A stretch of DNA of 64,000 nt, from NCBI GenBank assembly GCA_002430735.1, contig DJCV01000013.1:33460-97459 (forward strand), read 5' to 3'. Origin of the DNA: Candidatus Woesebacteria bacterium UBA5941. Its GTDB lineage: Bacteria > Patescibacteriota > Microgenomatia > UBA8517. A model generated the notes under the pieces. That model saw only the letters and a program-made list of their open reading frames with translations, was not told the DNA's origin and made no database searches. The stretch's first letter is position 1. Each line of letters starts with the position of its first letter. A program made the position numbers and the translations under genes. Shown piece by piece: positions 16,901 to 33,260 of the stretch.

Positions 16901-19900
16901 TAAAGTGGACTGACGCAGGTGGGTGGGCGTGTGCAACTGACACCTCTGGGAGTGGATCAGCTGCCGTTCAAGAAGGAGACTCAGGGGTCGTCGCCTCACT
17001 TTCGACACTCGACTTTTTGGCAGCAGACTTTATCGTTAGCGAGAGTCCATCTGGTGAGGCAAATATTAGTCTTGATTATGCAAATTCAGGTGTCACCCGT
17101 GTCGGGCAAGCTGAAACAGTAACCGGTGGCTGGACGTTTAATACTGCGGCAACTACCTTCACTACAGCAATTGACGTAAACTCCGCATCAACGGTCGCAG
17201 GCTTAACGGTTGACGGAAACGGCAGCCTCTCTGTATCAAATGGTTCACTTGATGGGGCACTTTCTCTTTCAGGAACCACCAGCGATAATGGACTGCAAAT
17301 TGGTCTGACAAACGGAACAAGTGGAGGAACTCAAAACATTGCCTACTTTGATAATGCTGCATCGAGCGGTACTACTGAAAGCATTTTGGTTATTGATAAC
17401 AGTGATACTGACACCGCTGTTACGAATGCAATTGAATTTATAAATGCAGGTGGAGGTTTTACCAATCTGTTTAATGTCGCGGGGACAACTATTAGTTCTG
17501 GTGAGTTCACACTTCTCGATGGACGTGATACAGCACTTGTCGATACAACTGATGCTGTATCAACCGCTATTACTGGTACAGGCACATTAACTGCAGGGGC
17601 AACAGGAGCTGGATTTACCATTAACTTCGGAACATCAACTCTCTCGGGCAATATCACGGGAACTAATATCTCAGGTGTAGATATTTCAGATGATACTAAT
17701 CTTACGGTGACAAATGGCATTACTCTCACGGGCGATCAGTTGAGCCTTGCCTCAACTGCTGCCGGTGATGGATTGACCTACACAACAGGAGTACTCGCGA
17801 TTGGTTCAGGCGCGGGAATTACCGTTTCTGCTGATGCAATTGCGGCAACATTGGGCACTTCAATCGCGAATTCTGAAATCGACAACGATGCGATTGATTT
17901 TGATAAAGTGTCAGACACCTTAACGCTTGATGCTGCAACATCTATTACAGCGAGTGGTGCTTTGGGACTTACGATCGGTAACAATGTGACGCTTTCAGCA
18001 ACAGGTACAGGAGCCATTACTGCAACGGACCTTTCTTGTACTGACTGTATTGGTTCAGCTGAAGTCGGTGAGTTAACACTTGGCACAGACACCGCAGGAA
18101 ACTATGTAGCAACTGTTACAGGTGGAGCAGGACTCACCGGTTCAGGCTCAAGCGAAGGATCAACTCCAACCATCGCTGTTGGTGCAGGGAATGGAATTGC
18201 AGTTAACGCTGATGACATTGCCGTTAATCTCACATCAAGCGGCACAACTGGTTCTACTTCAAGCAATTCAGGGCTTGAAGTTGGAAGTGGAGGGTTAACC
18301 CTTCTTAAGGGGTGTAGTGATAATGAGCTCTTAAAGTGGACTGACGCAGGTGGGTGGGCGTGTGCCACTGATACTTCAGGAAGTGGTGCTGCTGCTGTTC
18401 AAGAAGGAGACTCAACCATTGTAGCCTCACTATCAACACTCGATTTCTTGGCAGCAGACTTTATTGTAGGAGAATCTCCATCAGGGGAAGGAAATATATC
18501 AATTGATTATGCAAATTCAGGAATTACCCGTGTGGGGCAAGCTGAGACAGTAACGGGTGGTTGGACGTTTAATACTGCATCCACAACATTCACTACTGCA
18601 ATTGATGTAAACACAGCTTCAACAATGGCTGGACTGACTGTTGATGGCAATGGTAACCTCTCTGTTTCAAATGGAACCATAGATGGAGCAATCTCACTCT
18701 CTTCTACAACCTCTGATAATGCGACTCAAATCACACTCACAAACGGCACGAGTAGCGGAACTCAAAATATTGCCTACTTTGATAATGCTGCTTCTACTGG
18801 AACAACCGAAAGCATTGTGGTTATTGATAACAGTGATAGTGATACGGCAGTGACGAATGCAATTGAATTTGTAAACGCTGGAGGCGGGTTCACCAATTTG
18901 TTTAATGTTGCAGGCACAACTATTTCAACCACAGAGTTTACGCTCCTTGATGGACGAGACACCGCTTTGGTTGATACAACTGATGCGGTTGCAACAGCAA
19001 TTACAGGAACTGGAACTTTAACTGCAGGTGCAACGGGAGCTGGGTTTACCATTAACTTCGGAACATCAACCCTTTCAGGCGACGTAACAAGCGCAAATAT
19101 TTCAGGGGTCGATATTAGTGCTGATACAAACCTTTCAGCCTCTAATGGAGTGACGTTAACAGGAGATGCATTAAGCTTGTCATCTGCAGCGGGTGGCGAT
19201 GGATTAACATACACAACAGGCGTACTTGCTGTTGGCGCAGGGACGGGTATTTCAGTTGCAGCTGATGCAATTTCTGCAACATTGGGCACTTCAATTGCCA
19301 ACGCTGAAATCGATGATGATGTCATTAATTTTGACAAAATTGCGAACGCGTTAACACTTGATGAAGGCACAACAATAACAGCGGGCGGTGCATTAGGGCT
19401 CACGATCGGTAACAACGTCACTTTGTCAGCTACCGGGACAGGAGCGATTACTGCAACAGACTTGTCATGTGCAGATTGTATTAACGGCACCGAAATTGGC
19501 GACTTAACATTAGGGACAGACACAGCTGGAAACTATGTTGCCACAATTACCGGTGGGGCAGGACTGACCGGTTCAGGTTCAAGTGAAGGTTCCACTCCAA
19601 CGCTCGCTGTTGGAGCAGGTAACGGAATTACAGTGAACGCAGATGACATTACGATTGCGTTAACCGGAAGCGGCACAACTGGTTCTACTTCAAGCAATTC
19701 AGGACTTGAAGTTGGTTCTGGTGGACTCAGTCTCTTAAAGGGTTGTACTGACACTGAAATATTAAAGTGGACCGATGCCGGAGGATGGGCCTGTGCTGCT
19801 GACGAAACAGGCGGGGGAGGTTTCACAAGCTTCACTGCTGCAGGAGACTCAGGTGGTGGTCAAACGATTTCTGACGGAAATTCGTTATCTATTTTAGGTG

Positions 19901-22422
19901 GAACAAATGGAATTGATACCGTTGATAGTGCAACTGATACCGTGACCTTAAACCTTGATACAACTGAAATTGGAACAACCACATTTGGATCAGGAAGCGG
20001 GATTACCTGGACGTTTAATGCAGGAGCAACGGACCCTGTAATTGCATTTGGATCAGATACCATCGACTTTACGGCAGGTACGACTACGCTCTCTGGGAAC
20101 CTCACCGTTTCAGGGGGAACAATTTTAGGTGTCGCGACCAGTAATTTGTTAAATTCAGTAACCACAACATTAAACTTTGCAGGAGCCGCTACAACGTTAA
20201 ACATTGCTGACGGTGCAACTACCAAAACGATTGATATCGGGGGCGTGACTGCTGATGGCACTGACACAATAAATATTGCAACAAATGCCACTTCTCCAGA
20301 TGTTATTTCAATTGGAAACGGGCATGGGGTATCAAGTATCGCGCTTACATCAGGTGACTCATGGGCAATTAGCGCGAATGGTGTAATGACTCTTTCTGCT
20401 GATTCATCACAAACCACGGCGATTGTTGCAACAGATACTGACTACACGAATTTTGCCTCAATTGGCGACAACAATATCATAGGGACAACTGCTGCAATTG
20501 ACCTTACAAACTTTGACGTTGCTTCAACCGGTGCGCTTACCTTGGTTGGCGGATTGTCTCCAGATATCACGACGCAGTCAAATAATAATTTGACTATTCA
20601 GCCAGGAGGGACTGGTGCAATTATATTTAATTCAAGTAATACTTCAGCGTCTGCAATCGACATTAATGCAACGGGTACCGTTGCCGGGAATGCGTTCACG
20701 CTTGATACTACCAACGGTGGTATTGCGCTCACTGCTGGTGGTGCTTCAAACGGGGATATTACGATTCTTTCAACTGATGACTTGAGTATAAATGGAACAG
20801 CAGGTTCTGTGGTCAATATTGGAACATCAGCGGTAGCTCAAACAATTGCAATTGGTGCTTCAAGTAACACTGACCTTGCACTTGCTGACGCACAATGGAG
20901 CATAACCGGTGCTGGGGTTGCAAGCTTTGTTTCAGGAACGGTACTCGGATCTCAAACATTTACAACAAATAACATCGTTGACAGCGGAGCTCTTACTATT
21001 AAATCAGCAACCGGAGCTAATGCCTTAACGCTTGATTCAGGGTCTACAGGAACGGTGAACCTTGGTACGAGCAACAATGCGAAAACTATTAATATTGGAA
21101 CGGGAACACAAGGGAATACTATTCTCATTGGAACAGACAATACCACCTCTGACACGATTACAATCGGTACTGCACTAGATAACGTTTCAATTGTGGGTGA
21201 CTCCTGGTCAATTACCGATGCGGGGGTTTTGACCGTAGCATCATGTAGTGGATGTGGAGGCGGTGGAGGAACGTTGCAACAGGCTTATAGCGGTGATGCT
21301 GACGGTAGTAATGCGATCATTTTAACTGACTCAACTGATGGATCTGTTATTATCCAAACCGTGGCTGGAACACAGTTCCAAGTTGCTGCAACTGCTGCTC
21401 CAACTGTTGACCTTGCTTCAATCACAAATGCTGGTCAAGGAGTCACAAGTACGAGTGGTGTTGACGGGTTATCAATAACCTATGTGCAAGCAACAGACGC
21501 AGGCGCCATCACCGGGAGTGGGCTCGATGTGACATTAACTCCTTCTGGAGACGCCTCAGACGTTATCCGTGGAATCACCCTTAACAACATAACCAGTGGA
21601 AGTTCAACAGAGACTGGTTTGTATGTGGGAACTGGGTATGATCGTGATATTGAATTTGCAGACAGTACCCCAACAATTAGATCAGCCGATGGTGCAGTAC
21701 TTTCATTCACCGATGGAACAAACACGATGGCTTCTATTAAAGACCAAGGGACTTATGCATTTTTAAACATCACTCCAAAAGGAACGGCATCCGATCCAGC
21801 GACTTGTGCTGTTGGTGATGTGTACGTAAATAGTAGTGACGCGACGATTAAAGCTTGTACCGGAACTGATACCTGGGAAGCACTCGATGGCGGTGGTGGA
21901 GGCGGAACTAAGGTTGTGACGTTACATCCAGAATTCCCAGGCGCAACCCTTACCGCCAACGGAAGTGCGACTATTAATGGAACCATGACCTCAGATGTTA
22001 CCGGAAGTGCTGATGGATGGAAGAATTTCTATGAATGGAATTCAAGTCAAACAAGTTTGCAAGACTATACCGTTGCTGTTCGGTTCAAACTTCCATCTGA
22101 CTTTTCATCGTGGGCTACTTCGAATGCCATTGTTGTTAATTATGTAACAGAATCAACAGCAAACACCAATAATAAAATTGATATCGATATTCGAAACGAA
22201 GACGATACCCCAGGAACGACCGTGACTACGTCTTCAGCAAATGTCTCAGGAGTTGCAGCAACATGGACATCCGTTGCCATTGATGACTCAGTAATTGACG
22301 ATGGTGCGGCACCGGACATTGACGCAGCGGGTGAGGACATCGTTTTGTTAATTAAGCTTTACTCAAAAGACTCAAATTACTCACGAGTTGGTGATATTGT
22401 CCTAACATATACTGCCCAATAA
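13939..22422 (+). CDS. Giant (2827-aa) membrane-tethered surface protein. It has two N-terminal cytoplasmic MerR/excisionase-type HTH domains, a single TM helix, tail-fibre-like motifs, 3.5 tandem repeats of about 475 aa, beta-helix-like G/T/S-rich repeats, and a C-terminal beta-rich domain.
   Basis: It is a single uninterrupted ORF. The HTH motifs are 'IRTAAEFLGVSIDTLRRWDKQGIL' and 'VSEAADLLGMSISTLRRLETRGKL'. The TM helix is 'IVASLAIFVVVSITTLTVLFLLY'. 'GYLAWDTSGNQLIVYDGASWGTL' resembles phage tail-fibre repeats. Repeating blocks include '...LKGC(S/N)DN(E/Q)ILKWTDAGGWAC...TLSTLDFLAADFIV.ESPSGE.NIS.DYANSG(I/V)TRV'. Confidence 0.85.
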   Translation: MPNDLPTEPKYIAIRTAAEFLGVSIDTLRRWDKQGILKAQRPNGKDRVFLVKDLERFKYAHPLQVSEAADLLGMSISTLRRLETRGKLVPKRDSNGRRIYNFAELARFAKNVPSDKVAVTQSEVNILTKDAVAARIEVDTILRRVRRVRSIVASLAIFVVVSITTLTVLFLLYPSETADFFELTEPEYVSNGVILNRSVLGVANSNEASGITPIIISLFRPLAKVSLNLVGQIDEEKYQIATRSHIIDGDSLLRSISSIEISDSSDFIITDTSVIHNLNAELLDGRQVGSNPGNLVVIDDNGKINPDLIDYSTVEVAFTIEDRSIGGAQIELDTIENENIANSAITSNKIEDGTVSSSDLADNAVITAKIADNAITGAKIDNGTITTSDLSTGLSFSSSTLIDLSAVTHTSTTPQGLVLPNASSANPSGPSTGEGYLAWDTSGNQLIVYDGASWGTLAGTGDITGVTAGSGVTGGGASGGVTVNVGAGNGITVNADDIAINLATSGTTGGSSSNSGLEVGSGGLSLLKGCSDNQILKWTDAGGWACSNDTGSGSTVSVEEGDSSVTATLSTLDFLAADFIVQESPSGEANISVDYANSGITRVNQAQVVTGGWTFNTAATTFTTDLIANGGITLASGETISNGSDSTITLGRNDAGTVTLNAKDDDATAALTILPGGAAALTLGGSATTGITLVTDSTGDSEVVLPASSIGNSELVNSGLTFAGNSGSGSVALGGTFTIVGAGINNAVYSGGTVTITGTEADTLASVTGRGATSSTALTLSSTSNAITVGTLTISGDAFTDLTGTGLTISGGALNTTLGVAIDSSEITDATIGNGDIANDTIDLDKVSDTLTLDAATSITASGALGLTIGNNVTLSATGTGAIVATDLSCTDCITSTEISELTLGTDTAGNYVATVTGGAGLTGSGASEGSTPTLAVGAGNGITANADDIAVNLTSSGTTGSTSSNSGLEVGSGGLSLLKGCNDNEILKWTDAGGWACATDTSGSGSAAVQEGDSGVVASLSTLDFLAADFIVSESPSGEANISLDYANSGVTRVGQAETVTGGWTFNTAATTFTTAIDVNSASTVAGLTVDGNGSLSVSNGSLDGALSLSGTTSDNGLQIGLTNGTSGGTQNIAYFDNAASSGTTESILVIDNSDTDTAVTNAIEFINAGGGFTNLFNVAGTTISSGEFTLLDGRDTALVDTTDAVSTAITGTGTLTAGATGAGFTINFGTSTLSGNITGTNISGVDISDDTNLTVTNGITLTGDQLSLASTAAGDGLTYTTGVLAIGSGAGITVSADAIAATLGTSIANSEIDNDAIDFDKVSDTLTLDAATSITASGALGLTIGNNVTLSATGTGAITATDLSCTDCIGSAEVGELTLGTDTAGNYVATVTGGAGLTGSGSSEGSTPTIAVGAGNGIAVNADDIAVNLTSSGTTGSTSSNSGLEVGSGGLTLLKGCSDNELLKWTDAGGWACATDTSGSGAAAVQEGDSTIVASLSTLDFLAADFIVGESPSGEGNISIDYANSGITRVGQAETVTGGWTFNTASTTFTTAIDVNTASTMAGLTVDGNGNLSVSNGTIDGAISLSSTTSDNATQITLTNGTSSGTQNIAYFDNAASTGTTESIVVIDNSDSDTAVTNAIEFVNAGGGFTNLFNVAGTTISTTEFTLLDGRDTALVDTTDAVATAITGTGTLTAGATGAGFTINFGTSTLSGDVTSANISGVDISADTNLSASNGVTLTGDALSLSSAAGGDGLTYTTGVLAVGAGTGISVAADAISATLGTSIANAEIDDDVINFDKIANALTLDEGTTITAGGALGLTIGNNVTLSATGTGAITATDLSCADCINGTEIGDLTLGTDTAGNYVATITGGAGLTGSGSSEGSTPTLAVGAGNGITVNADDITIALTGSGTTGSTSSNSGLEVGSGGLSLLKGCTDTEILKWTDAGGWACAADETGGGGFTSFTAAGDSGGGQTISDGNSLSILGGTNGIDTVDSATDTVTLNLDTTEIGTTTFGSGSGITWTFNAGATDPVIAFGSDTIDFTAGTTTLSGNLTVSGGTILGVATSNLLNSVTTTLNFAGAATTLNIADGATTKTIDIGGVTADGTDTINIATNATSPDVISIGNGHGVSSIALTSGDSWAISANGVMTLSADSSQTTAIVATDTDYTNFASIGDNNIIGTTAAIDLTNFDVASTGALTLVGGLSPDITTQSNNNLTIQPGGTGAIIFNSSNTSASAIDINATGTVAGNAFTLDTTNGGIALTAGGASNGDITILSTDDLSINGTAGSVVNIGTSAVAQTIAIGASSNTDLALADAQWSITGAGVASFVSGTVLGSQTFTTNNIVDSGALTIKSATGANALTLDSGSTGTVNLGTSNNAKTINIGTGTQGNTILIGTDNTTSDTITIGTALDNVSIVGDSWSITDAGVLTVASCSGCGGGGGTLQQAYSGDADGSNAIILTDSTDGSVIIQTVAGTQFQVAATAAPTVDLASITNAGQGVTSTSGVDGLSITYVQATDAGAITGSGLDVTLTPSGDASDVIRGITLNNITSGSSTETGLYVGTGYDRDIEFADSTPTIRSADGAVLSFTDGTNTMASIKDQGTYAFLNITPKGTASDPATCAVGDVYVNSSDATIKACTGTDTWEALDGGGGGGTKVVTLHPEFPGATLTANGSATINGTMTSDVTGSADGWKNFYEWNSSQTSLQDYTVAVRFKLPSDFSSWATSNAIVVNYVTESTANTNNKIDIDIRNEDDTPGTTVTTSSANVSGVAATWTSVAIDDSVIDDGAAPDIDAAGEDIVLLIKLYSKDSNYSRVGDIVLTYTAQ
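15300..19800 (+). repeat. Intragenic tandem direct repeats of about 1.35-1.43 kb, about 3.5 copies, inside the giant gene.
   Basis: The 'LKGC.DN.ILKWTDAGGWAC' block recurs at about nt 15525, 16870, 18305 and 19740. Copies 2 and 3 are about 85-90% identical at the protein level over about 475 aa. Confidence 0.8.
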
Positions 22423-22429
22423 ACGCCCC

Positions 22430-24184
22430 ATGAAGAAACTAATGAACATTATTTTTAAACAGGCAAAAAGAAGCTTTCGTTCCGTTCTTCAATGGTGGCG
22501 GCATCTTTCTAAACGAACGCAGTTGAGTTTGAGTCTCTTTGAACTTGCGATTGTGTTCTTCGTGCTGCCAAACATTCATGGTGGTTTGAAAATTTTGGGG
22601 TTTGTAGAGAAAGACTTTATCGTCTCAACATCTGGTGCACTGTATGAAACCAATAACAATCCTTATTTTCGTGCACTAATTGGTAGTAGTAGCGATACCA
22701 AACAGTCTATTCTGAAATTTGAAATACAAGGTAAAACAGTAACCATAGGACTTCTTGATGCTGCAGAAGAAGCACCGGTTGTGAAACTTGTTGATGTAAA
22801 TGAGACTCCTTCTAACCTTATTATCCCTGAATCGCTCATACATGCTGAGGCTGAACTTGCCTCAGCTGAAGCTGTGTTGCAAGAAATTGCGAATAAAACC
22901 TATGAGGTTAGCCAAGAGGTATCAGAGATTATTGGAGAAGCTGAGCAGACGTTTTTTGGCCCGCGCGAGCAGATTGTTTTAAGAGCAATTGAAAAAATAA
23001 ACAAAGTTACCTATTATCGGAAACAGAACGCTCTCATTGAGACGATAGAACTTGTAAACCCAGACATTGAAACACTTCACTTTGTAGTGAAATCTCCCGA
23101 CATTTCTGTTCGTAAAACTCGATTGCAAGATTGGAACTTAGTGAGTGAAGGGAATGGGCTCATGACCGTTAAAACGCACATGGTGGATGGTCGTGGTGCA
23201 GTCTCAGCGCTACCTGAGGTAGATAATGCATTTACTGAAAGCACTGATGACACTATTCACCATTTGCTTCTACCCGTTGAGTGGATGCAATCACCCTCTC
23301 GAGTGTTCCCTCTGAAAGTTGTCCGCACATTTGCTCCTCTTGAGCCAGTACATGACTCTCTCGAATCCAAGCTACAAAATATAGTTGGAGAACAGTTTGT
23401 AGAACTCTCACTATTTACGTCTCACAACCCGCGGTTCTTAACCCTTTTCAAGGGAGATGTTTTATATTGGGAAGCACTATCAGGCACTATTTCACTTATT
23501 CAAAATGGAAATACAATACCGCTTTTTACCGAGCCGTTACTGTCAGGGCTTTCATGCACTGATAATGGGTGTTTCGCAGCAAGGACAGATACCATTCAGT
23601 TTTTTAACCCAACAGACATACTAAATCGCTTGCCTGAATCAGATATCAACACATTTTTCGAAAGTTTAAAGGTTTCTGATACTCCACTTGGTGGAATCGC
23701 TGTTGGGAAAGGTACAATTCTTCGTACAAGCTATTCAAGTCCAACAGGAGCCGTATATGGATCAAGCACTTTTGGTGGTGTCGAAAATAAAGTATATGAA
23801 AATGTAAGTTTTCCGTCGTTTCCAGCGGTCAGTGAAGACGGGCAATATCGAAGTTTTTGGGCTGAAGGGAAGCTGTTTATAGGTGAGGCAAATAGCAACT
23901 GGCAAACCATTTCAATCCCATTTGAACCTGAGTCAGTTTCCATTGGAAATGACAACCGTGTTTATTTTATAGTTAAGTTTGATCCTTTGCAGACGGATAT
24001 GGTTGTGCGAGTGACACCAGGTTTGGGACTTGAGATTCTCTCACACGTTACCGGGGACTTTAGTTCACTTCATATCACGAATGACACTCTCTACCTTGGG
24101 TTGAATATAGATGAACGGAACGGAGCTGTTTTGAAATTGCCACAGAATATTTTGGCATGGAATCAATGGAATGAATATGAATAA
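22430..24184 (+). CDS. Hypothetical membrane-anchored protein (584 aa). It is in an operon with the giant protein, and its stop overlaps the next start.
   Basis: It is a long ORF. The N-terminal signal anchor is 'LSLSLFELAIVFFVLP'. It lies 8 nt downstream of the giant gene, and the stop/start overlap is atgaatatgaataa. Confidence 0.6.
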   Translation: MKKLMNIIFKQAKRSFRSVLQWWRHLSKRTQLSLSLFELAIVFFVLPNIHGGLKILGFVEKDFIVSTSGALYETNNNPYFRALIGSSSDTKQSILKFEIQGKTVTIGLLDAAEEAPVVKLVDVNETPSNLIIPESLIHAEAELASAEAVLQEIANKTYEVSQEVSEIIGEAEQTFFGPREQIVLRAIEKINKVTYYRKQNALIETIELVNPDIETLHFVVKSPDISVRKTRLQDWNLVSEGNGLMTVKTHMVDGRGAVSALPEVDNAFTESTDDTIHHLLLPVEWMQSPSRVFPLKVVRTFAPLEPVHDSLESKLQNIVGEQFVELSLFTSHNPRFLTLFKGDVLYWEALSGTISLIQNGNTIPLFTEPLLSGLSCTDNGCFAARTDTIQFFNPTDILNRLPESDINTFFESLKVSDTPLGGIAVGKGTILRTSYSSPTGAVYGSSTFGGVENKVYENVSFPSFPAVSEDGQYRSFWAEGKLFIGEANSNWQTISIPFEPESVSIGNDNRVYFIVKFDPLQTDMVVRVTPGLGLEILSHVTGDFSSLHITNDTLYLGLNIDERNGAVLKLPQNILAWNQWNEYE

Positions 24185-27100
24185 GAAAAAATCAGTGTTC
24201 GCAGTATTACTTGTCATAGTGTTTATGGTTTCCTCCATGGGATTGCCACAACTTGTGTTATTTCAATCCCTCCAGAAGCCACTCCCGAAAACTCTTGAAA
24301 GAGCTCCAGAAGCAAAAGCTGAAAATGCGTACATTTCAGCTACAGCGTCAGTTACTACTGGAATACAAACCAATCATCATTCCTATACTCAGATAGCAGA
24401 TACCTTTGACTGGAGAATACTCACGACCGCTTCAGGACTCGATGCAACGGTAACATTCTCAAATGTTGCGCTGAATAGTGCCAACGTATTGTATGTGAAC
24501 TACAACGGGTCAGCTTCATCCGCATCATTAACGTACGAAATTCAGATTCGTGATTTTACTGCAGGCACATGGAGAACCATTAACCCACATGCAACAACGC
24601 TGGCCAACGTAACCGACCAGGCCGCCGGGCTTTTGTATCAGCCGACTGCTGCGGTTGCTGGAATGGGGCAGATCGCAATTTATGATGGATACTTTAGTAA
24701 TGGAAGCAACTCACCAGTTTCAATCCCATTGTCTGACTTTGTAAATGATAGTAATGAAGTGCAAATTCGATTCCTATCAGCCACAGTGACACCGAATCTT
24801 GAAATGCGTATTGATTATTTGTCTGTTGAACCAGCAATAGAAAACATGAAATATGCATCTTCTATGACAACTGCAGCAGGCACCGTTTCCAATGAATATA
24901 ACGATACAACAACAGACGACAATACAACAAACTTATCTATTGCGGCGACCGCAAGTGGTATTGACACATATTTGTCGTTTACGAACATGCCAACCCCGTA
25001 CACCGGGGCGAACGTTATTTTGGTGGAATATTCAGGAAATGATGACGCGTCACTTTCTGATTACAGTATTCAAGTCCGTGATTTCACTAACGGCCAATGG
25101 GATACGTTAAACGGAACTGTTTTAAATAGCGCAACTGATACCACCCATTACTTTGCAACTTCAACAGCACAAGCTGTTACAGACTATATCTCAGGAAATG
25201 AAATTCGGATTCGGTTTGTTTCAACTGATACGTCGGGTACTTTAAATATTGATTTTGCTCGAGTGACTATTGGGTCAGTCATGACTAATACAGGATTTTA
25301 TATAGATGAAATTAGTAGGGGATCTGTTTCAAGTGGAAGTGAAACAAACATGCAAACCATTGATACAACGTCAGCTGCATCTAGCTGGGTTCTTTCAACA
25401 AGTGCTTCAGATGTCACCGCAACAACCCAGTATCCAGGTGACTGTAATGCGGCTACTAATAACTGTGTTGGGGTAAATTTACAGCTTCCAGTAACTGTTC
25501 CTTCAAACACGATGGTAACCGGTGTGCACACTATGTTTCGATACAACACTTCAAGCGCAAACATCGATATGGAGTTTGGGATACGGAATGTGATGAATGG
25601 AAATATGGCGGTGACAACTGCTGTTGCCGATGAAACATCTCTTCAGTCGATGCGAAGGGAGTTAAGCTATCCAATGCCTCCACAAGTTGGAACAGACCCT
25701 TTGGTAACAGTTCCTGTGTATGAGCCCGAGTATTATGTAAACACAATAAACGATGCAATTAATTTTTATGCTCGATCTGCAGCTTCGTCGGCAAGTGGAA
25801 CGCTCACTCTTGATTTTGTCTTTGTCTCAATACGATATTTAGGCCCTTATAAAAGTGTGAGTAACAGATGGGTGCCTACTGGTGCAACGATTACAAACGG
25901 AACAAACAACGCCTCAAACTTTAGGTATGCAAACAGGGATGACTCAAACTATTATTCAGTTACTCCTAGTGGTAGTGGTACTGATTATTACTTGTCTTTC
26001 TCGAACGTTGAGATACCAACAAATGCCAATAAAATTATTATTGACACCCGCGCCCGTTCAAGCGCAGCTTCTCAAACGTATGAAATATATCTTTACGACT
26101 TTGTGAATACGACGTGGAGGGAAGTTACTCCGCATAGTACGAATTACACTTCTGATGGTACGCTAAGCACCGAGGAGTTAGTTCAAGTGGAAGTGTACGA
26201 TGGGTATTTTAGTAACGCGAGCGATGCACCTGTTTCAACGCCAATTTCAAATTTTGTGAGTTCTTCACAAATGCGTGTGCGATACGTAATGGCAAGTACA
26301 ACTAATCGTTTAGAGATTGATTGGGTAAATGTAGAGATTGCAAATGACCCGGTTTATTTTGCTGCAGATTCAACGATTACCAACGGAACTATTACAAATG
26401 AATATAATGATACAACGACAGATGATGCAACAACGAGTTATACAATTACAAATTCAAGCGGAATTGATTTTTACCTATCATTTAAAAATGTGTTGACTCC
26501 GCCCACGGGAGCGGATACTGCGTATTTACATGTGTCATCGCATATGACTGCAGGCGCAGGAAGTTATACTATTTCACTTTACAACTTTAATACAACGAGT
26601 TGGGTCCCATTTAATGGAACGGTATTAACACACACTTCCGATCGAACTGATTACTACTTCCTCAACATTTCTAATTGGGCTCATTATATTAGCGGTAACG
26701 AAATGCGCGTAAGGTTCAACTCAGCTTCAGCAGGAGGGACTATTGTTGTCGATTATGCCAAGCTAGCTCTTGGGTCTGTAACAAATAGTACCGTGGGACA
26801 AACAATTGATCTTGGAGGAACATATGTAAACTCATATTCAGAAACTGCAACACTTGATACCAGTAACTTTGTAGCACTTGAAAATTCATGGGGTATTCGC
26901 AGTCATCCAAACACGCAGTCTGCAGAGGCACTAGAAGCTCCAGCCTCAATTGCATTGACAGTGAATTATCCACTCACCGTACCGACGAATGTGTATCCTT
27001 CAGGCATCATTTGGGCAATGAAAGGGTCTAGTAATGCGACAACTATTTCACCAACTGTGTCATTTACCAATACAAAAATCGGTACTCGAGTTGCGACAAA

Positions 27101-27335
27101 TGCGCGAGGGGTAACGCTTGCTCTCAATGCACTCCCGAACGCGGGTGATTTAGGAACGTTTGCTTCAACAACCGAAGTTATGAGAGAAGGGTGGTTTATC
27201 GAAAACACGGCGAATGCTCTTTTGAACGAACAAAATATGGTTCAAATGCGTATTAGAACAACTGCTTCTACGCTCTTAGGCCCTGCATATTTTATGATTG
27301 ATGCAGGGTTTGTAGCTTTAAGGTACGCTGAATAA
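24171..27335 (+). CDS. Large secreted repeat protein (1054 aa). It has a signal peptide and four beta-rich modules of about 160 aa of two alternating types.
   Basis: The signal peptide is 'KKKSVFAVLLVIVFMVSSMG'. Type-A modules carry 'YEIQIRDF..W' and 'YDGYFSNGS..PVS.P.S.FV'. Type-B modules carry 'NEYNDTTTDD.TT...SGID.YLSF.N' and 'YISGNE.R.RF'. It is dense in N-x-S/T sequons. Confidence 0.7.
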   Translation: MNMNKKKSVFAVLLVIVFMVSSMGLPQLVLFQSLQKPLPKTLERAPEAKAENAYISATASVTTGIQTNHHSYTQIADTFDWRILTTASGLDATVTFSNVALNSANVLYVNYNGSASSASLTYEIQIRDFTAGTWRTINPHATTLANVTDQAAGLLYQPTAAVAGMGQIAIYDGYFSNGSNSPVSIPLSDFVNDSNEVQIRFLSATVTPNLEMRIDYLSVEPAIENMKYASSMTTAAGTVSNEYNDTTTDDNTTNLSIAATASGIDTYLSFTNMPTPYTGANVILVEYSGNDDASLSDYSIQVRDFTNGQWDTLNGTVLNSATDTTHYFATSTAQAVTDYISGNEIRIRFVSTDTSGTLNIDFARVTIGSVMTNTGFYIDEISRGSVSSGSETNMQTIDTTSAASSWVLSTSASDVTATTQYPGDCNAATNNCVGVNLQLPVTVPSNTMVTGVHTMFRYNTSSANIDMEFGIRNVMNGNMAVTTAVADETSLQSMRRELSYPMPPQVGTDPLVTVPVYEPEYYVNTINDAINFYARSAASSASGTLTLDFVFVSIRYLGPYKSVSNRWVPTGATITNGTNNASNFRYANRDDSNYYSVTPSGSGTDYYLSFSNVEIPTNANKIIIDTRARSSAASQTYEIYLYDFVNTTWREVTPHSTNYTSDGTLSTEELVQVEVYDGYFSNASDAPVSTPISNFVSSSQMRVRYVMASTTNRLEIDWVNVEIANDPVYFAADSTITNGTITNEYNDTTTDDATTSYTITNSSGIDFYLSFKNVLTPPTGADTAYLHVSSHMTAGAGSYTISLYNFNTTSWVPFNGTVLTHTSDRTDYYFLNISNWAHYISGNEMRVRFNSASAGGTIVVDYAKLALGSVTNSTVGQTIDLGGTYVNSYSETATLDTSNFVALENSWGIRSHPNTQSAEALEAPASIALTVNYPLTVPTNVYPSGIIWAMKGSSNATTISPTVSFTNTKIGTRVATNARGVTLALNALPNAGDLGTFASTTEVMREGWFIENTANALLNEQNMVQMRIRTTASTLLGPAYFMIDAGFVALRYAE

Positions 27336-27345
27336 CCTGAAACAT

Positions 27346-30300
27346 ATGGCACTCAAAAAGAAAAAATTCATACTCTCAATTGTTTTAAGTTGTGCAATGA
27401 CTGCTCAATCGTGGCATTTACCGTATTTAATTTTAAACGAGGCACCACAGACACGGGAGCTTGCACAAAAATTACGTCCGAATGAAGTTTCAAGTGCAGA
27501 CGCTCGATTTCAGTTCCAGCCAACAACGACAACAGTGACTACAGCAAAAGGCACGACAGGGGATCATCTAGCGGTAGGTGCCGCTGATAATCTATATATG
27601 TATGCCACAAGCTCCGATTCAGGGCTCGACATCTCGTTTACTTTTAATAATGTTCGATTGTGGAGCGCGAACGCTATTCGTGTTTTCTATGATGGGTTTG
27701 CGAGCTCAGCATCACTTACATATGAGATTCAAATTCGGGATTATGTAAATAGTACCTGGCGAAATATTAATCCCCATGAGGCCACAAATACAAATACTGC
27801 TGACTCAACACTTGCAGGATCTCTTTCATCAGTTGCTGCAAATTTACCAGGTGGAGGAGTGATTGATATTTATGATGGTTACTTTAGTAATGGCAGTAAC
27901 ACTCCAGTTGCGACGCCGCTTTCTAATTTTGTAAACAGTGACAAGCAAATGCAAATTAGGTTTTATTATGCAGGTTCCACTGAGAACCTTCAGTTAGCAA
28001 TTGATAATATTACGATTCAACCATCTCAACTTCCATATTATTACCCATCAAGCTCAACAAAAAACAGTACTGGCGCACAGACAAATGAATATAATGATTT
28101 AACAACAGATGACGCGACAACAAGCATGACTTTTGCAGGAGCAGTTGGAGGGATTAGCAATGATTTTTACTTCACCAATGTGAGCCTCCCGTACTCTGAT
28201 GCAAATACATTCTTAATTGAGTACTCCGGCCATATTTCTACCTCTAACTACTCAATAGCAATATATGACTATAACGATGCAGAATATCAGACATTAAATG
28301 GAGCAGTGCTCACAAACACATCCGATGCTACCAATTACTTTGCTCTTGTGCCGGCTGCCAACAGCGACGCGATGGAAGACTTTATTGATGAGGCAAACAA
28401 TAATCGAATGAATATTAGGGTGACTTCCCCAACTACAAGCGGGACCCAAACAATCGATTTTTTAAAGCTTGTTATCGGTTCCACTCACACAAATACCGGT
28501 GACTATATAGCTGCGATTACTAGAGGAACAACTTCATCAGGAACTGAGGCAAATGTGAGGAATTTAGATACCTCAAATACGATTTCCCAATGGGTGTTGA
28601 ACGCGACGACATCAGAACAAGACACGGAGAGCTCTGGGGATTGTACAACTATCACTGGGTATTGTGTGGCAATGCAAGTAACAGTACCAGTTACAGTTTC
28701 TGCTCAAAATATTGTGCAATCGGTTATCCAATATGGTCGATTTAACACAAACAACGCAGACTCGGATCCACTCATGGCTGTGCGGGATGTTGCAGGGAGT
28801 TATGATGCAACTACCTCCTCAACAAACATGACGGCCGCGGCTATGGTTATTCGCGAAACCAACAACCCAATGCCTCAGCAAGTAGGATATGCAGCCCTTG
28901 CCGCTGTTCCTGCATTCACTCCAAACTCCTACGTTCGCAAAAGTTATAACTCTATGTCTATGCGTATTTATACCCCTGCTGCAGCTGCGGCACGAACCAT
29001 GAGTGTTGATTTCGCCTTTATGACGATTACACTGGTAACTCCACTTGAGCGTGAGGTGTACCGGAAAGTGCCATCAGGGGGTACTATTACTGCCGGCACT
29101 GAGACCAACTCGAATTATCGGTTTACCCAGGGAGATGATGCTGTAAACTGGGATTTAAACCCGAATGGTACAACTGGTACTGATGTCTATGTGTCTTTTA
29201 ACGACACGACAATTCCAACTGGTTCAAATAAGTTAATTATAACGAGTAACCATCGATGGGATGTTAATTCGGCAAGTTACGAAATGTATATTTATGATTT
29301 CGTTACAGACACATGGCGTGATATGTCGCCTCATGAGACGAATTTTACACACGACGCGACTGCTGCTAATTATGACTACATACAGCTTGAGATATTTGAC
29401 GGATATTTCAGTAATGGAAGTGGGACCCCTGTTTCAACACCATTATCAAACTTTGTTGAAAATGGGGAAGTGCGCGTCCGTATGTTATCTGCGTCAACTA
29501 CCGCGGATCTTGATTGGGATTTTGCCCAAATTCAATTCGTGATTGATCCATCGTATCTTCCTGCTGACATTGTAACAACCACAGGAACAGAGGCCAATGA
29601 ATATACTGATCTTTTTACTGATGACAACACAACGAACTTAACCTTAACCCCTTCTGGGAACGCGGTTGACTCATATTTGACGTTTGCGAATGTCGTGATG
29701 CCTCCTGAAGGCTTTAATGCGCTATTTGTAGAGTTTACTGGATGGAAGACAACCTCTGGCACAATCAACCTAAACTTACGCAATTTTACAACTGGCTCGT
29801 GGGAACCAATTAAGACAGGTGCCTCAATCGTTGCGCGTGCGACTCATTATTATGTCGTTGAGATAGGCGATTGGAGTAACTATATCGATTCGAATAACCA
29901 CATGCGGGTACAAATAACATCAGCAGCGAGTGCGACCGTTGTGAATCTTGATTTTATTCAAATCACTATGGGAATGGTTCCCAAGGCGGATACCCCCGTT
30001 ACGGCAAATTACGGGGCTATTATGAATGGAACCGCTGCAAGCTTGGGTAATATTGACACTATCTCAAGCACTGATGAATTGAACGGTGCTAATTACTTAA
30101 CTATTACTGAGTCAAACGCTACAACCGGGATTCCAGCCCATGACACCATGGGGGGAAAATCATTACAAGTTGATTTTCCTTTCCACGTTGACCCTGGAAC
30201 ATATCCAGTTGGGCTCATTTGGAATTATCGGGCTGCGTCACACACAACAGTTGTCGTAACACCTACTATTGAGACAGGTGGATTTAACTATCAATCACTT

Positions 30301-30624
30301 AACACAAGCTTTTTATATACGTTGCTTGCCGCGAATGCTATGGCTGCGACCTCTGACACTGCAGTTTTAACCTCGACAACACAAGCCTTTCGACAGGGTT
30401 GGTTCGTAGAACCACTAGCAAATTTATGGGATAGCGTTGATAACAGATTGAAATTTAGACTTGCGACTACAACAGGACTTGTGAATGCAGAGTGGGATTT
30501 GAGCGTGGACTTTGTGTTTTTGTCGTATCGATGGGTACCATTTGAGATAACTCCTAACCCCGAGCAACAAATGCGCGGAGGAACCTTTTTCTTTGGTGGT
30601 GATGAGCAGAAGAAGTCATTTTGA
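27346..30624 (+). CDS. Paralogue of the preceding secreted repeat protein (1092 aa) with the same A-B-spacer-A-B-C-terminus architecture.
   Basis: The signal peptide is 'KKKFILSIVLSCAMTAQS'. Conserved 'YEIQIRDYVNSTW', 'YDGYFSNGSNTPVATPLSNFV' and 'NEYNDLTTDDATTS' are present. The shared C-terminal motif is 'FRQGWF.E..AN'. Confidence 0.7.
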   Translation: MALKKKKFILSIVLSCAMTAQSWHLPYLILNEAPQTRELAQKLRPNEVSSADARFQFQPTTTTVTTAKGTTGDHLAVGAADNLYMYATSSDSGLDISFTFNNVRLWSANAIRVFYDGFASSASLTYEIQIRDYVNSTWRNINPHEATNTNTADSTLAGSLSSVAANLPGGGVIDIYDGYFSNGSNTPVATPLSNFVNSDKQMQIRFYYAGSTENLQLAIDNITIQPSQLPYYYPSSSTKNSTGAQTNEYNDLTTDDATTSMTFAGAVGGISNDFYFTNVSLPYSDANTFLIEYSGHISTSNYSIAIYDYNDAEYQTLNGAVLTNTSDATNYFALVPAANSDAMEDFIDEANNNRMNIRVTSPTTSGTQTIDFLKLVIGSTHTNTGDYIAAITRGTTSSGTEANVRNLDTSNTISQWVLNATTSEQDTESSGDCTTITGYCVAMQVTVPVTVSAQNIVQSVIQYGRFNTNNADSDPLMAVRDVAGSYDATTSSTNMTAAAMVIRETNNPMPQQVGYAALAAVPAFTPNSYVRKSYNSMSMRIYTPAAAAARTMSVDFAFMTITLVTPLEREVYRKVPSGGTITAGTETNSNYRFTQGDDAVNWDLNPNGTTGTDVYVSFNDTTIPTGSNKLIITSNHRWDVNSASYEMYIYDFVTDTWRDMSPHETNFTHDATAANYDYIQLEIFDGYFSNGSGTPVSTPLSNFVENGEVRVRMLSASTTADLDWDFAQIQFVIDPSYLPADIVTTTGTEANEYTDLFTDDNTTNLTLTPSGNAVDSYLTFANVVMPPEGFNALFVEFTGWKTTSGTINLNLRNFTTGSWEPIKTGASIVARATHYYVVEIGDWSNYIDSNNHMRVQITSAASATVVNLDFIQITMGMVPKADTPVTANYGAIMNGTAASLGNIDTISSTDELNGANYLTITESNATTGIPAHDTMGGKSLQVDFPFHVDPGTYPVGLIWNYRAASHTTVVVTPTIETGGFNYQSLNTSFLYTLLAANAMAATSDTAVLTSTTQAFRQGWFVEPLANLWDSVDNRLKFRLATTTGLVNAEWDLSVDFVFLSYRWVPFEITPNPEQQMRGGTFFFGGDEQKKSF

Positions 30625-30660
30625 GTTTGCAATGTCAGTGTGTTTTGGCTATGAATAAAC

Positions 30661-31662
30661 ATGGCGCAAAAAATTATCCCTACCGTTATTGCAATGGCGG
30701 GACTGTTTTTAATAGGCTTTTTTCTAGGAAAAAGTAACCCGGATTCATTGAACAGTGCTCTAAATACTATCCGAGGACAGCAAGTCAGACAAAGTGGATT
30801 CACATATATTAATCCGCTCCTTGAGTGTGAGATTGCAGAAGAACTGGATTTTGCGGAATTGACACCATTTAAGAAGGATGTTGAGAAGTATGTTGGTGAC
30901 CAAATTACGAGTGGGGATGCAACACATATTTCTATTTACTTTAGAGACCTCATGAACGGGCCGTGGATGGGAATAAATGAACGGGAGGAATTCTCCCCGA
31001 GTTCATTATTAAAAGTTCCCCTTATTATGTCTTTTTACTTACAAAGTGAAAAGGATCCCTCATTACTTGAACGAAAGTTTTTATATAACGGTACCTTTGA
31101 TATTGAGGATAATCAAAATATAACACCAGAGGAGACATTAGCAGTAGGTAACGAGTATTTCGGTGAAGAATTAATTGAGAGAACCATTCGTTTTTCTGAC
31201 AACAATGCGGCCAAGTTATTGTCTCAAAGCATGATGAGTGAGTATTTTTTTAAACCATATAAAGATCTTGGATTAAAGCTGCCAGTTATGTCAAACGGTG
31301 AGTATTACATTCGTGTTAAAGACTATGCATCATTTTTTCGAGTTCTCTACAATGCATCTTATTTGACTAAGACCAGTTCTGAAAAAGCACTTTCAATACT
31401 TGCACGCTCCACCTTCAATGAAGGGCTAAGGGGCGGCGTCCCGAGCACAATCCCAGTTGCCAGTAAATTTGGGGAACGAATCTGGGAAAATACAAACGAG
31501 CATCAAATGCATGATTGTGGGATTGTGTATTATCCAGGGCATCCTTATCTCTTATGTGTCATGACAAAAGGGAAGTCGTTTGAATCTCTCGAAAAAACAA
31601 TTTCTGGTGTGTCAAGGCTTATATATGAAAAGGCGAACGAGGCTTACTCGATTCGAGATTAA
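30661..31662 (+). CDS. Class A beta-lactamase-like serine hydrolase (penicillin-binding-fold), membrane-anchored.
   Basis: It has an N-terminal TM helix. An S-x-x-K-like 'SPSSLLKV' is present, along with the SDN loop 'RFSDNNAAKLL' and a KTG-like 'SKFG'. Confidence 0.55.
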   Translation: MAQKIIPTVIAMAGLFLIGFFLGKSNPDSLNSALNTIRGQQVRQSGFTYINPLLECEIAEELDFAELTPFKKDVEKYVGDQITSGDATHISIYFRDLMNGPWMGINEREEFSPSSLLKVPLIMSFYLQSEKDPSLLERKFLYNGTFDIEDNQNITPEETLAVGNEYFGEELIERTIRFSDNNAAKLLSQSMMSEYFFKPYKDLGLKLPVMSNGEYYIRVKDYASFFRVLYNASYLTKTSSEKALSILARSTFNEGLRGGVPSTIPVASKFGERIWENTNEHQMHDCGIVYYPGHPYLLCVMTKGKSFESLEKTISGVSRLIYEKANEAYSIRD

Positions 31663-31682
31663 TCTCTGATAGAATCTCATGT

Positions 31683-32417
31683 ATGGTATCCTTTAAGGTG
31701 AAAGTTTTGCATGTAAAGATTTTTTTCGGTCTCATTGCAGTGGTTGGAGTTACTGCAGTTGGTGTCATCACATTTCTTCGTCAAAACCCTTCGGTACTGG
31801 GATCTTCAAAAGTGACTACCGCAGGGGATCCACAGAAAGAATTGGACCAACTTGTGGCTGAAATTAAAAAAGTAATGATTCTACCTGGAGATGAAGTCCC
31901 TACGCTTGCTACAGTATCTGAAGCAGAAAAGCTTTCTTCTCAAACATTCTTTAAAAATGCACAAAATGGCGACAAAGTGCTCATTTACAAAAAAGTCAGA
32001 AAAGCGATTTTGTGGCGACCATCTGCACGCTTAATTATAGAAGTAGGAACAGTCACTTCGAATGAGAAACCTGTTTCACCAGACAGTTCTGCGAACAATG
32101 AGACAGATGCATCTGCGAAGATGGATGCGCCGAAACGAGTACTATTTGCCAATGGAACAACGCAACCTGGGTTGGCTTCGGCAATTGCAGATCAGGCAAA
32201 AACGATTCCAGGAGTCGTAGTTGTTGATCGAGTAATTGCAAAGCGAACTGACTACGAGAAAACTATTATTGTTGATTTAACAGGGAAACGGGAACTGGAA
32301 GCGCAGTTTTTATCCCAAGAAATTGGAGGTGAAGTAAGCACTCTTCCTGAGGGTGAAGTAAAGTCTGAGGGGGTGGATTTTATGGTGATCCTTGGAACTG
32401 ATCTAATTTCAGATTAA
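31683..32417 (+). CDS. LytR_C (LytR/CpsA/Psr C-terminal) domain-containing membrane protein.
   Basis: It has an N-terminal TM helix. The C-terminal 'VLFANGTTQPGLASAIADQAKTIPGVVVVDRVIAKRTDYEKTIIVDL' matches the LytR_C pattern. Confidence 0.55.
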   Translation: MVSFKVKVLHVKIFFGLIAVVGVTAVGVITFLRQNPSVLGSSKVTTAGDPQKELDQLVAEIKKVMILPGDEVPTLATVSEAEKLSSQTFFKNAQNGDKVLIYKKVRKAILWRPSARLIIEVGTVTSNEKPVSPDSSANNETDASAKMDAPKRVLFANGTTQPGLASAIADQAKTIPGVVVVDRVIAKRTDYEKTIIVDLTGKRELEAQFLSQEIGGEVSTLPEGEVKSEGVDFMVILGTDLISD

Positions 32418-32492
32418 ATCACGCTCCGTGCAGGGGACGACCACGCTTTTTGCTTTACATTCAGAAAAAACTCTCGTATAACAAAAGGTGTT

Positions 32493-33233
32493 ATGGATAC
32501 TGAAGTGAAAAGTGAAAAAAAGAAGCGGCGTGTTCCTCAATTTTTAATTACCAAGATTCTTCCACTGGTTCTTGTTGCGACGATTGGAGCTGCTGGAATG
32601 TACCTACTTGTAAGCAAGAACCCGTCTGTCATGGGAATTACTACTAATAGTGAAGCCGACAGTGCGAAAGAAGTGGAAGCGCTCGTAAATGAGGTTAATA
32701 AAATAATGACGCTGCCTACTGATGAATCGCCAACGATTGCGACCGTGAGTGACGCAGAAAAAATTAAGGCTCAATCATTTTTTAAAAACGCTCAGAATGG
32801 AGACAAGCTCTTGGTATATACCAAAGGACGAAAAGCAATTCTCTATAGACCAAGCGATAAACGTATTATTGATGTCGGTGTTATAAACATTAACCAACCA
32901 CAAGCAAACGCAACTACTTCTGGGTCACAACAAAATATCACCCCTGCCACTAAAACATATCGAATCGCTCTCTATAATGGCACGACAACCGTCGGAGCTA
33001 CAAAAGAGGTGGAAGGAGCAGTCAAAGCAGTATTTCAAGACGCACAGTTTGTAGAACGCTCTGTCGCAGCCCTTACAGATTATGCGGAAACAATTGTTGT
33101 TGACCTGAATGGAAACCGTGGAGATGACGCAAAGAAAATTGCAGAAGCATTAAGAGTTTCATTGAGTGCACTTCCAGATGGAGAAGAGAAACCTGAGAAT
33201 GCAGACTTTTTGATTATCGTTGGTGGGCAATAA
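32493..33233 (+). CDS. LytR_C domain-containing membrane protein (paralogue of 31683-32417).
   Basis: It is about 45% identical to the neighbouring gene, with 'TVSDAEKIKAQSFFKNAQNGDKLLVY' and 'IALYNGTTTVGATKEV...ETIVVDLNG'. Confidence 0.55.
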   Translation: MDTEVKSEKKKRRVPQFLITKILPLVLVATIGAAGMYLLVSKNPSVMGITTNSEADSAKEVEALVNEVNKIMTLPTDESPTIATVSDAEKIKAQSFFKNAQNGDKLLVYTKGRKAILYRPSDKRIIDVGVININQPQANATTSGSQQNITPATKTYRIALYNGTTTVGATKEVEGAVKAVFQDAQFVERSVAALTDYAETIVVDLNGNRGDDAKKIAEALRVSLSALPDGEEKPENADFLIIVGGQ

Positions 33234-33260
33234 AAAAAGGCCGTTTAGGTAAACGGCCCC
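33232..33260 (-). terminator. Intrinsic terminator (9-bp perfect stem, GG loop) with the U-tract on the minus strand.
   Basis: On the + strand the sequence is ggccgttta-gg-taaacggcc, preceded by aaaaaaa. Read on the minus strand this gives a hairpin followed by TTTTTTT, directly downstream of the minus-strand ORF 33275-33592. Confidence 0.65.

Follow-up and report, generated by a model that had tools for sequence, protein, structure and literature searches.

A cassette for paired six-domain proteins with a predicted carbohydrate-binding fold in Woesebacteria and other bacteria of the candidate phyla radiation

Genes at the locus

Contig DJCV01000013.1 of Candidatus Woesebacteria bacterium UBA5941 (assembly GCA_002430735.1), an uncultured and ultra-small member of the Microgenomates, carries a run of genes for large surface or membrane proteins, at the centre of which are two paralogues of more than 1000 residues each, here called the A-type and the B-type protein. 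We analysed a stretch of 64,000 nucleotides (positions 33,460 to 97,459 of the forward strand), which is referred to as the window; all coordinates are window positions. An original prediction had described the two paralogues and a 584-residue membrane protein as operon partners of a giant protein that lies upstream, and had considered the whole to be a cell-surface attachment system of unknown type. The open reading frames (ORFs) of the run are as follows; the last three were assigned by family match and synteny.

13939-22422, + strand: giant protein, 2827 aa
22430-24184, + strand: single-pass membrane propeller protein, 584 aa
24171-27335, + strand: A-type paralogue, 1054 aa
27346-30624, + strand: B-type paralogue, 1092 aa
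30661-31662, + strand: membrane-anchored serine hydrolase, 333 aa, similar to class-A beta-lactamases and to the penicillin-binding protein PBP-A (match to PF13354; synteny)
31683-32417 and 32493-33233, + strand: two single-pass membrane proteins of ~245 aa, LytR_C-like (sub-threshold match to PF13399; synteny)

These seven genes form one co-directional run on the plus strand (13939-33233), the cassette in what follows. The ORFs of 584, 1054 and 1092 aa are present as had been described and are tightly coupled: the giant gene and the 584-aa gene are separated by 7 nt, the 584-aa gene overlaps the A-type gene by 14 nt, and the A-type and B-type genes are 10 nt apart. Downstream, the gaps are 36 nt (B-type to 333-aa gene) and 20 nt (333-aa gene to the first LytR_C-like gene). 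A GC-rich hairpin with a 12-bp stem is found at 33235-33262, only 2 nt past the stop codon of the last LytR_C-like gene. It was scored on the minus strand by the terminator scan and is likely to mark the end of the transcription unit or to be a bidirectional terminator.

Every cassette protein has a single N-terminal hydrophobic segment, and in several A-type orthologues a canonical signal-peptidase site (AxA|EYAY) follows directly after it. The secretion that had been predicted for the paralogues is borne out by these segments, which all of them have, and by the AxA sites of some orthologues. Thr, Ser, Asn and Ala are abundant in the cassette proteins while Cys and Lys are scarce. The GC content is even across the region, and Tandem Repeats Finder detected no DNA-level repeats in 13900-30700.

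Domain architecture of the two paralogues

The two large proteins are indeed paralogous, being 38% identical over their full length (blastp, E = 0). Each had been described as a signal peptide followed by module A, module B, a spacer, a second module A, a second module B and a conserved C-terminus. The internal duplication behind this description exists in both proteins (residues 33-565 match 562-1071, E = 6e-43); as internal repeats are masked when a protein is compared to itself by BLAST, it was revealed with split queries. The layout nevertheless has to be revised in two respects. Modules A and B are themselves homologous (blastp 1e-12 to 1e-13, hhalign probability 98-99%), and the supposed spacer is a homologue of the supposed C-terminus (hhalign 98.5%), the two being a third copy, which we call modules C1 and C2. 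The C modules are weakly homologous to module A (hhalign 93% for A1 against C2) and, like the others, were modelled as beta-sandwiches. All twelve modules of the two proteins can be aligned end to end and share the signature t-G-t-x-t-N..y..t.t-d-D ... f-x-n-V..P ... y-x-i..r-d-f..g-x-w ... g-Y-f ... m-r-i-R ... l-x-D-f.

On the basis of these alignments, both paralogues have the architecture signal-(A-B-C)x2, with six copies of one domain family of ~150-170 aa among which the C copy is the most diverged. In the history of the family, an ancestral domain was triplicated, the triplet doubled, and the resulting six-domain protein copied by gene duplication. A single-domain hidden Markov model (HMM) of ~170 positions, built from these modules, finds six contiguous copies in each paralogue, as is expected by construction; it matched nothing else in the window, the giant protein included, even at E <= 10. 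Domain boundaries were taken from this HMM and the alignment; the B-type protein has an additional tail, which was assigned by its motif.

A-type protein (+ strand), domains A1, B1, C1, A2, B2, C2: aa 56-223, 228-370, 374-556, 568-725, 729-870, 876-1052
B-type protein (+ strand), six domains: aa 59-227, 232-380, 384-564, 576-733, 738-879, 883-1065
B-type protein, basic and aromatic C-terminal tail with motif QMR[GH]G[KT][WF][WF]: aa 1066-1092, nt 30541-30621, + strand

With this architecture, each protein has two A and two B modules rather than four copies of each. The motifs that had been quoted as always present do exist but are less constant than claimed: the second A copies have YEIYLYD or YEMYIYD in place of YEIQIRD, and YISGNE, said to occur in every module B, is missing from both B modules of the B-type paralogue, which carry FIDEANNN and YIDSNN.

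The two types differ at their ends. While the A-type protein stops right after its last strand, every B-type orthologue continues with a tail of ~27-38 aa (...SYRWVP..QMR[GH]G[KT][WF][WF]...) that ends on F, Y or H. The tail motif was found neither in A-type proteins nor in any other ORF of the window and the compared loci. A role as a general sorting signal was considered and rejected, as the tail is confined to B-type orthologues; it might serve for docking or for binding to the wall.

Module C1 contains a Cys-x6-Cys pair (GDCNAATNNC; aa 425-432 of the A-type protein, nt 25443-25466) which is invariant in 25 of 25 family members. These are the only cysteines of the A-type protein, and the pair is likely to close an extracellular disulphide loop.

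Fold and family membership of the modules

The 1054-aa A-type protein was modelled with AlphaFold2 from an alignment of 25 sequences. The model is all-beta and resolves six sandwich domains, with a mean predicted local distance difference test score (pLDDT) of 80.3 and a predicted template modelling score (pTM) of 0.77. Foldseek comparison to the PDB retrieved arrays of galactose-binding-domain-like jelly rolls, including the N-terminal region of reelin (2e-17), the Cry1Ac and Cry8 protoxins, EngBF, neuropilin b1b2, tandem CBM22 and BcsB. According to the model, the modules have the beta-jelly roll of type-B carbohydrate-binding modules (CBMs) and can be superposed on solved CBMs. The original guess of a lectin-like beta-sandwich was thus right at the level of the fold.

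At the level of sequence, relationships are much more remote. No CBM family of Pfam or NCBIfam matches the paralogues, and a profile search of PDB sequences gave no match to the module family at E <= 1. The only sequence family that was detected is PF14741 (GH114_assoc), to which module B1 of the A-type protein (aa 247-362) matches with 31.5 bits, above the gathering score of 22. The B-type paralogue stays below it (17.4 bits), as do most modules, and 13 of the 25 family members match PF14741 at E <= 0.01. These scores point to a distant relation at the superfamily level rather than to clean membership. PF14741 itself is an uncharacterised, N-terminal domain associated with glycosyl hydrolase 114 (GH114). 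In the case described here no GH114 domain (PF03537) occurs in the paralogues, the cassette or the scanned flanking genes. A full-text literature search found no paper naming PF14741, so that membership conveys no function. The modules had been called novel, and it had been proposed that a match to well-characterised domains would count against this. They are not novel in that they form one family with a distant tie to PF14741 and have a standard CBM fold; their identity with known domains is restricted to the fold, and no characterised family claims them.

The type-B CBMs to which the modules are comparable (CBM29, CBM22, CBM16, CBM4 and CBM15 in CAZy; galactose-binding-domain-like superfamily) have the fold in common with them but only 8-13% sequence identity. 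The modules of the paralogues are not attached to a glycoside hydrolase but form six-domain arrays in non-enzymatic proteins.

Two alternative explanations take the fold and family matches as their starting point. According to the first, the modules are part of a scaffold that handles exopolysaccharides, and would bind or guide a secreted or capsular polymer, e.g. a galactosamine-rich one, as the carbohydrate-binding domains of BcsB do for cellulose. The PF14741 match, the presence of BcsB among the Foldseek matches and glycosyltransferase genes in some of the neighbourhoods are compatible with this idea. However, the similarity to BcsB is that of a shared jelly roll only (E ~1e-6, TM ~0.1), and the genes conserved in the cassette include neither a GH114 catalytic domain nor a synthase or an exporter. 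Such a scaffold would also leave unexplained why the C-terminus of the giant protein is conserved (see below), and we consider it quite improbable.

The second alternative is that the proteins derive from mobile elements or phages and are receptor-binding or toxin-like, in analogy to Cry protoxins and Vip3. The matches to Cry1Ac and Cry8 protoxin, Vip3 and phage baseplate or fibre proteins fit such an origin, as do weak matches of the giant protein to PHROG tail families. In contrast, neither the membrane protein nor the paralogues belong to a PHROG family, and tblastn against 50,697 phage records gave no match. On these grounds a phage or mobile origin was rejected. In addition, the locus is of uniform composition and is flanked by housekeeping and wall genes, its chromosomal synteny is stable across genomes, and no pore-forming or catalytic domain was found in the proteins. 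We hardly give this explanation any credence.

The membrane propeller protein

The 584-aa protein has a basic N-terminus and one transmembrane helix (~aa 28-48). By the positive-inside rule, the basic residues in front of the helix place the N-terminus in the cytoplasm. An AlphaFold2 model was computed from seven sequences. Its overall pLDDT is 66.9 but rises to ~90 for residues 320-580, and in this confident region (nt 23387-24169) a six-bladed beta-propeller is seen. Foldseek matches of the propeller in the PDB are to NHL, Drp35/SGL, strictosidine synthase, xylonolactonase and the YVTN propeller of an archaeal S-layer protein (TM-scores of 0.5-0.6, normalised to the target). The 584-aa protein is therefore a bitopic membrane protein which, according to the model, exposes a six-bladed beta-propeller to the outside.

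The protein does not belong to any Pfam, NCBIfam or PHROG family. Its syntenic orthologues are only 23-30% identical. They were recovered by synteny, as the word-index homologue search with the 584-aa protein returned only the protein itself. The same search with an alignment of the propeller and the fibre C-terminus from six genomes also returned only the query, and was likely crowded by low-complexity words rich in G, T and S.

The giant protein and its conserved C-terminus

The giant protein starts with two tandem helix-turn-helix (HTH) domains of the MerR/HTH_17 type (aa ~11-57 and 65-108), followed by one transmembrane segment (~aa 150-185) and ~2640 extracellular residues. Judged from this order of domains, it would be a DNA-binding protein that is tethered to the membrane and has a very large ectodomain. 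Within the ectodomain there are repeats of ~477 aa whose identity is 58-80%, with 69-80% for the closest copies, and each of which carries the motif LKWTDAGGWAC (four copies).

Upstream partners of the propeller gene in other genomes, here called fibre proteins, have only one part in common with the giant protein:

21259-22422, + strand: conserved C-terminal segment of the giant protein, ~390 aa (similarity to the upstream partners in other genomes)

This segment is 55-69% identical to the last 320-390 aa of the upstream proteins (1219 aa, 1412 aa and others) in L001, L002, L003, L005 and L007, and its homologues always directly precede the propeller gene. The bodies of the fibre proteins cannot be aligned. 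It had been suggested to look for co-occurrence of the paralogues with an HTH-carrying giant protein. What co-occurs is the C-terminal ~320-390 aa, but the HTH domains are not conserved in the upstream partner: in L001 and L007 the fibre protein begins with a plain signal peptide, and in L002 a separate protein with HTH_17 and dCache domains precedes it.

The C-terminus had also been said to have the same flavour as the modules of the paralogues. A homology was tested and rejected, as hhalign gives a probability below 1% against every A, B and C module and the domain HMM remains silent at E <= 10. The segment does not match any Pfam family, and its sole match among PDB sequences is weak and covers a single blade of a designed propeller.

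Distribution and conservation of the cassette

Full-length members of the paralogue family are rare. Among 5.8 billion proteins they make up 24 clusters, all with lengths of 1024-1110 aa. The family comprises 12 A-type and 13 B-type sequences which always occur on shared contigs. When 1.84 billion representatives were searched exhaustively with the HMM, the family grew to 129 clusters at E <= 1e-3 (87 at E <= 1e-30), with lengths from 70 to 3581 aa; the longer members carry one to several A-B-C units. Source genomes, where named, belong to Woesebacteria, the 'Microgenomates group', Gracilibacteria, Saccharibacteria and Doudnabacteria, all of them bacteria of the candidate phyla radiation (CPR). 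Two further loci, on contigs of metagenome-assembled genomes, are labelled 'uncultured Pseudomonadales' (L007, CAYMVN010000018.1) and 'uncultured Gammaproteobacteria' (L008, CAYTIP010000001.1). Both contain the complete CPR cassette, with A-type proteins that are 51% and 38% identical to that of the window, respectively. Because the same cassette is present, the labels are probably binning or annotation errors. The cassette as such was found in about 12 genomes, and in 4 of 185,579 GTDB species representatives.

For the analysis of synteny, the proteins of the window were compared to eleven loci by tblastn. The original prediction had been staked beforehand on a conserved gene order in relatives, and this order is found: fibre protein C-terminus, propeller, A-type, B-type, PF13354 beta-lactamase-like and LytR_C-like genes follow each other in L001, L002/L006, L003/L004, L005, L007 and L008, and so in at least six other genomes of Microgenomates/Woesebacteria. 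The beta-lactamase-like gene is syntenic in L001, L002/L006, L005 and L007 but absent from L003/L004 and L008, and LytR_C-like orthologues are present in all core loci. A- and B-type proteins are 45-59% identical to orthologues of their own type. Conservation is even along their length, with 71 invariant columns, and similar to that of the beta-lactamase-like enzyme (42-58% between genomes).

In more distant members the modules are found in other arrangements. A PF13354 gene directly adjoins proteins with A-B-C modules in Gracilibacteria (L009, 9010-10005) and Doudnabacteria (L011, 8592-9695), and since it does so in both groups, the linkage between enzyme and modules appears to be older than the Microgenomates cassette. 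On the contig of P0032, a PF13354 gene lies beside a small MerR gene. P0032, P0040 and P0123 each unite A-B-C modules and an N-terminal HTH_17 domain in a single giant chain (the HTH domain is tandem in P0032 and in P0123), so that the design of the window's giant protein, HTH domain, transmembrane segment and giant ectodomain, recurs in them. A gene of the LCP family (LytR_cpsA_psr) adjoins P0040, being located upstream of it in L013. The 2103-aa protein P0039 (L012, 118-6429), which is followed by a second large ORF of 1331 aa, is a fusion of A-B-C units to Peptidase_M23, a peptidoglycan endopeptidase family. In L013 and L015, which contain P0040 and P0062, 5-8 small genes for secreted-looking proteins follow downstream, some with weak matches to Big_6, dockerin, cohesin or WxLIP_PGBD. 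These runs of small genes may be further cassettes for surface complexes.

The distribution bears on another possible explanation, that of an S-layer-like lattice. By analogy to archaeal SlaA and SlaB, a paracrystalline surface layer would be built from A-type and B-type subunits, with the propeller protein as its membrane stalk. Several properties agree with such a lattice. The proteins are large and all-beta, have the composition described above, and form an obligatory pair; a pTM of 0.77 over six domains suggests a rigid body and not beads on a string; the 584-aa protein matches in its fold, among others, the YVTN propeller of an S-layer protein from archaea; a PEGA-domain protein is encoded nearby; and periodic surface layers have been anticipated for CPR cells (PMC6851277). 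However, Pfam and NCBIfam detect no S-layer anchoring or lattice domain (SLH, CWB2 or similar) in the cassette proteins, which are also more conserved than typical S-layer proteins, and with its occurrence in so few genomes the lattice cannot be a general envelope of Microgenomates. We consider it doubtful.

The downstream enzyme and the wall-related neighbourhood

The 333-aa protein matches PF13354 at 1.2e-29. It aligns to class-A beta-lactamases and to a PDB chain named Tll2115, with SLLK (SxxK), SDN and K-F-G at the catalytic positions. Tll2115 is the PBP-A DD-peptidase of Thermosynechococcus. In the alignment to 6v4w, SLLK, SDN and KFG correspond to SVFK, SDN and KTG, so that the third motif has F for T. 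From the family match and the motifs, the protein can be assigned to the class-A beta-lactamase/PBP-A family, although its sequence matches to structurally solved chains are distant (E 1e-4 to 6e-8). It has SxxK, SDN and K-x-G in common with the known DD-peptidases of this family and differs from them by an N-terminal membrane anchor. The two LytR_C-like proteins score 20.0 and 19.0 bits against PF13399, below the gathering score of 22.2.

Genes with a relation to the cell wall are also found upstream of the cassette, where those on the plus strand immediately precede the giant gene:

9377-10558, - strand: PEGA-domain protein, in the wall-biogenesis neighbourhood
10615-13784, + strand: MreB, a WecG/TagA-family glycosyltransferase and a 445-aa UppS-domain protein

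The cassette is located among wall-biogenesis genes. Directly past it, at 33983-38003 on the plus strand, there is a cluster of the peptide-ligase type. It codes for a membrane protein with a 7TM_transglut domain and for three ATP-grasp ligases (RimK/sugar-transfer-associated), one of which has a Zn_protease-like C-terminus. Further downstream (42834-47159, + strand), a separate protein of 1441 aa has four PA14 domains (E = 2e-81) and is another surface protein of the lectin type.

Discussion

We tentatively favour the interpretation that the cassette encodes a wall-associated, glycan-binding surface platform on which a variable fibre is mounted, and that it is found in a limited clade within Microgenomates/Woesebacteria. 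For the platform, the A-type and B-type proteins would assemble into a hetero-oligomer that binds glycans multivalently. It may be seated on the cell's own peptidoglycan or on a wall glycopolymer and be kept at the membrane by the propeller protein. The platform would dock the conserved C-terminal domain of the fibre protein and leave the variable repeat region exposed to the outside. As the A- and B-type proteins and the fibre C-terminus are conserved while the fibre body varies, a docking base that contacts conserved partners or a conserved polymer, with the fibre body pointing outward, seems plausible. The serine hydrolase and the LytR_C-like proteins may remodel the wall locally or tie the complex to it.

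The original prediction saw a dedicated attachment system in these genes. From the genes with which the modules are associated, we would say that the evidence points at least as strongly to the organism's own wall as to attachment. The links to the wall are the MreB, WecG/TagA and UppS genes upstream, the PBP-A-like hydrolase, the LCP gene next to P0040 and the fusion to Peptidase_M23.

Attachment to a host or prey cell nevertheless has to be weighed carefully. In this case the CBM-like domains would be lectins that bind host glycans, and the cassette would be the adhesion apparatus of a presumed episymbiont and not a base anchored to the wall. That the modules are CBM-like and multivalent is as expected for such lectins, and the fold says nothing about whose glycan is bound. 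Giant surface proteins of CPR bacteria are thought to mediate host recognition and attachment (PMC8080830; PMC6851277). The peptidase fused to the modules in one relative could be directed against a foreign wall, and the separate protein with four PA14 domains would agree with a lifestyle of attachment. Against this, the paralogues are conserved about as well as the enzyme, and evenly so, with their 71 invariant columns, which would be unusual for determinants of host range. It is the fibre body that varies, not the paralogues, and the conserved neighbours all point to the wall of the producer. Attachment lectins are thus possible, but we regard them as unlikely on balance.

Several points weigh against the wall-associated platform. 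The CBM fold is no proof of sugar binding, as the same fold is found in reelin, ephrin receptors and domains of Cry protoxins, and the ligand could equally be a glycan of a host surface. None of the cassette proteins has a wall-anchoring domain (SLH, LysM, WxL, LPXTG or CWB) that could be detected with Pfam or NCBIfam. The beta-lactamase-like gene is missing in two of the core loci, L003/L004 and L008. The half of the 584-aa protein that lies next to the membrane was modelled with low confidence; it comprises a small beta unit, a long helix (residues 134-167) and a beta-sandwich. Finally, we infer the operon structure from spacing and synteny only, as scans of 13700-33690 for promoters and terminators gave no more sites than shuffled sequence.

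A bolder version of the wall-associated platform can be imagined, although we consider it a long shot. The cassette might represent a new envelope organelle of Microgenomates, in which the pair of six-CBM proteins assembles on the wall into a heteromeric ring or lattice, rests on the membrane propeller and serves as a socket for interchangeable giant fibres that are inserted with their C-terminal plug. In the genome described here the fibre would at the same time be a membrane-tethered DNA-binding protein with tandem HTH domains, and a contact at the surface would be wired to the chromosome through one polypeptide of 2827 aa.

Operons of secreted or anchored non-enzymatic proteins which presumably assemble on the wall are known, examples being the WxL/Csc clusters of lactobacilli and enterococci and the cohesin-dockerin assemblies. 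The cassette resembles these in its operon logic, and weak matches to WxLIP_PGBD, cohesin and dockerin occur in neighbours of distant family members. In the cassette of the window, searches of Pfam and NCBIfam detect no WxL, DUF916 (WxLIP_PGBD), LPXTG, cohesin or dockerin; weak WxLIP_PGBD matches are restricted to neighbours at L015. Another system for comparison is known from Vampirococcus lugosii, which has very large membrane-localised proteins that have been proposed to give the cell a fibrous surface and to act in the recognition of hosts and attachment to them (PMC8080830). Phylogenetic setting and inferred location are similar to those of the giant protein described here. The domains listed for V. 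lugosii are of the WD40, TPR and PKD type, and neither this domain family nor paired six-domain proteins nor the cassette are among them (PMC8080830).

It follows that the CBM-like jelly-roll fold is already known, and so is the logic of multi-gene surface clusters in monoderm bacteria. What is new is the (A-B-C)x2 architecture in an obligatory A/B pair, the conserved cassette, in which a membrane propeller, the plug domain of the fibre and an enzyme similar to PBPs accompany this pair, and its restriction to CPR bacteria. No literature on the cassette was found, and literature searches on S-layers of Microgenomates and on HTH-giant surface proteins gave nothing specific. If the proteins merely bind the wall of their producer, the cassette would add only modestly to what is known of CBM-like surface proteins. 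It would hardly come as a surprise to the specialist.

The cassette provides a first biological context for the uncharacterised family PF14741, and it reveals a modular giant partner in which a variable body is placed on a conserved C-terminal domain. Much of bacterial diversity belongs to the CPR (Patescibacteria), whose members presumably live attached to other cells, but their surface machinery has hardly been assigned to genes. We consider the cassette a good, concrete lead into the biology of this surface, as it offers experimentally tractable candidates: two soluble, lectin-like proteins of six domains each, the propeller protein of the membrane, the conserved plug of the fibre and the PBP-like enzyme.

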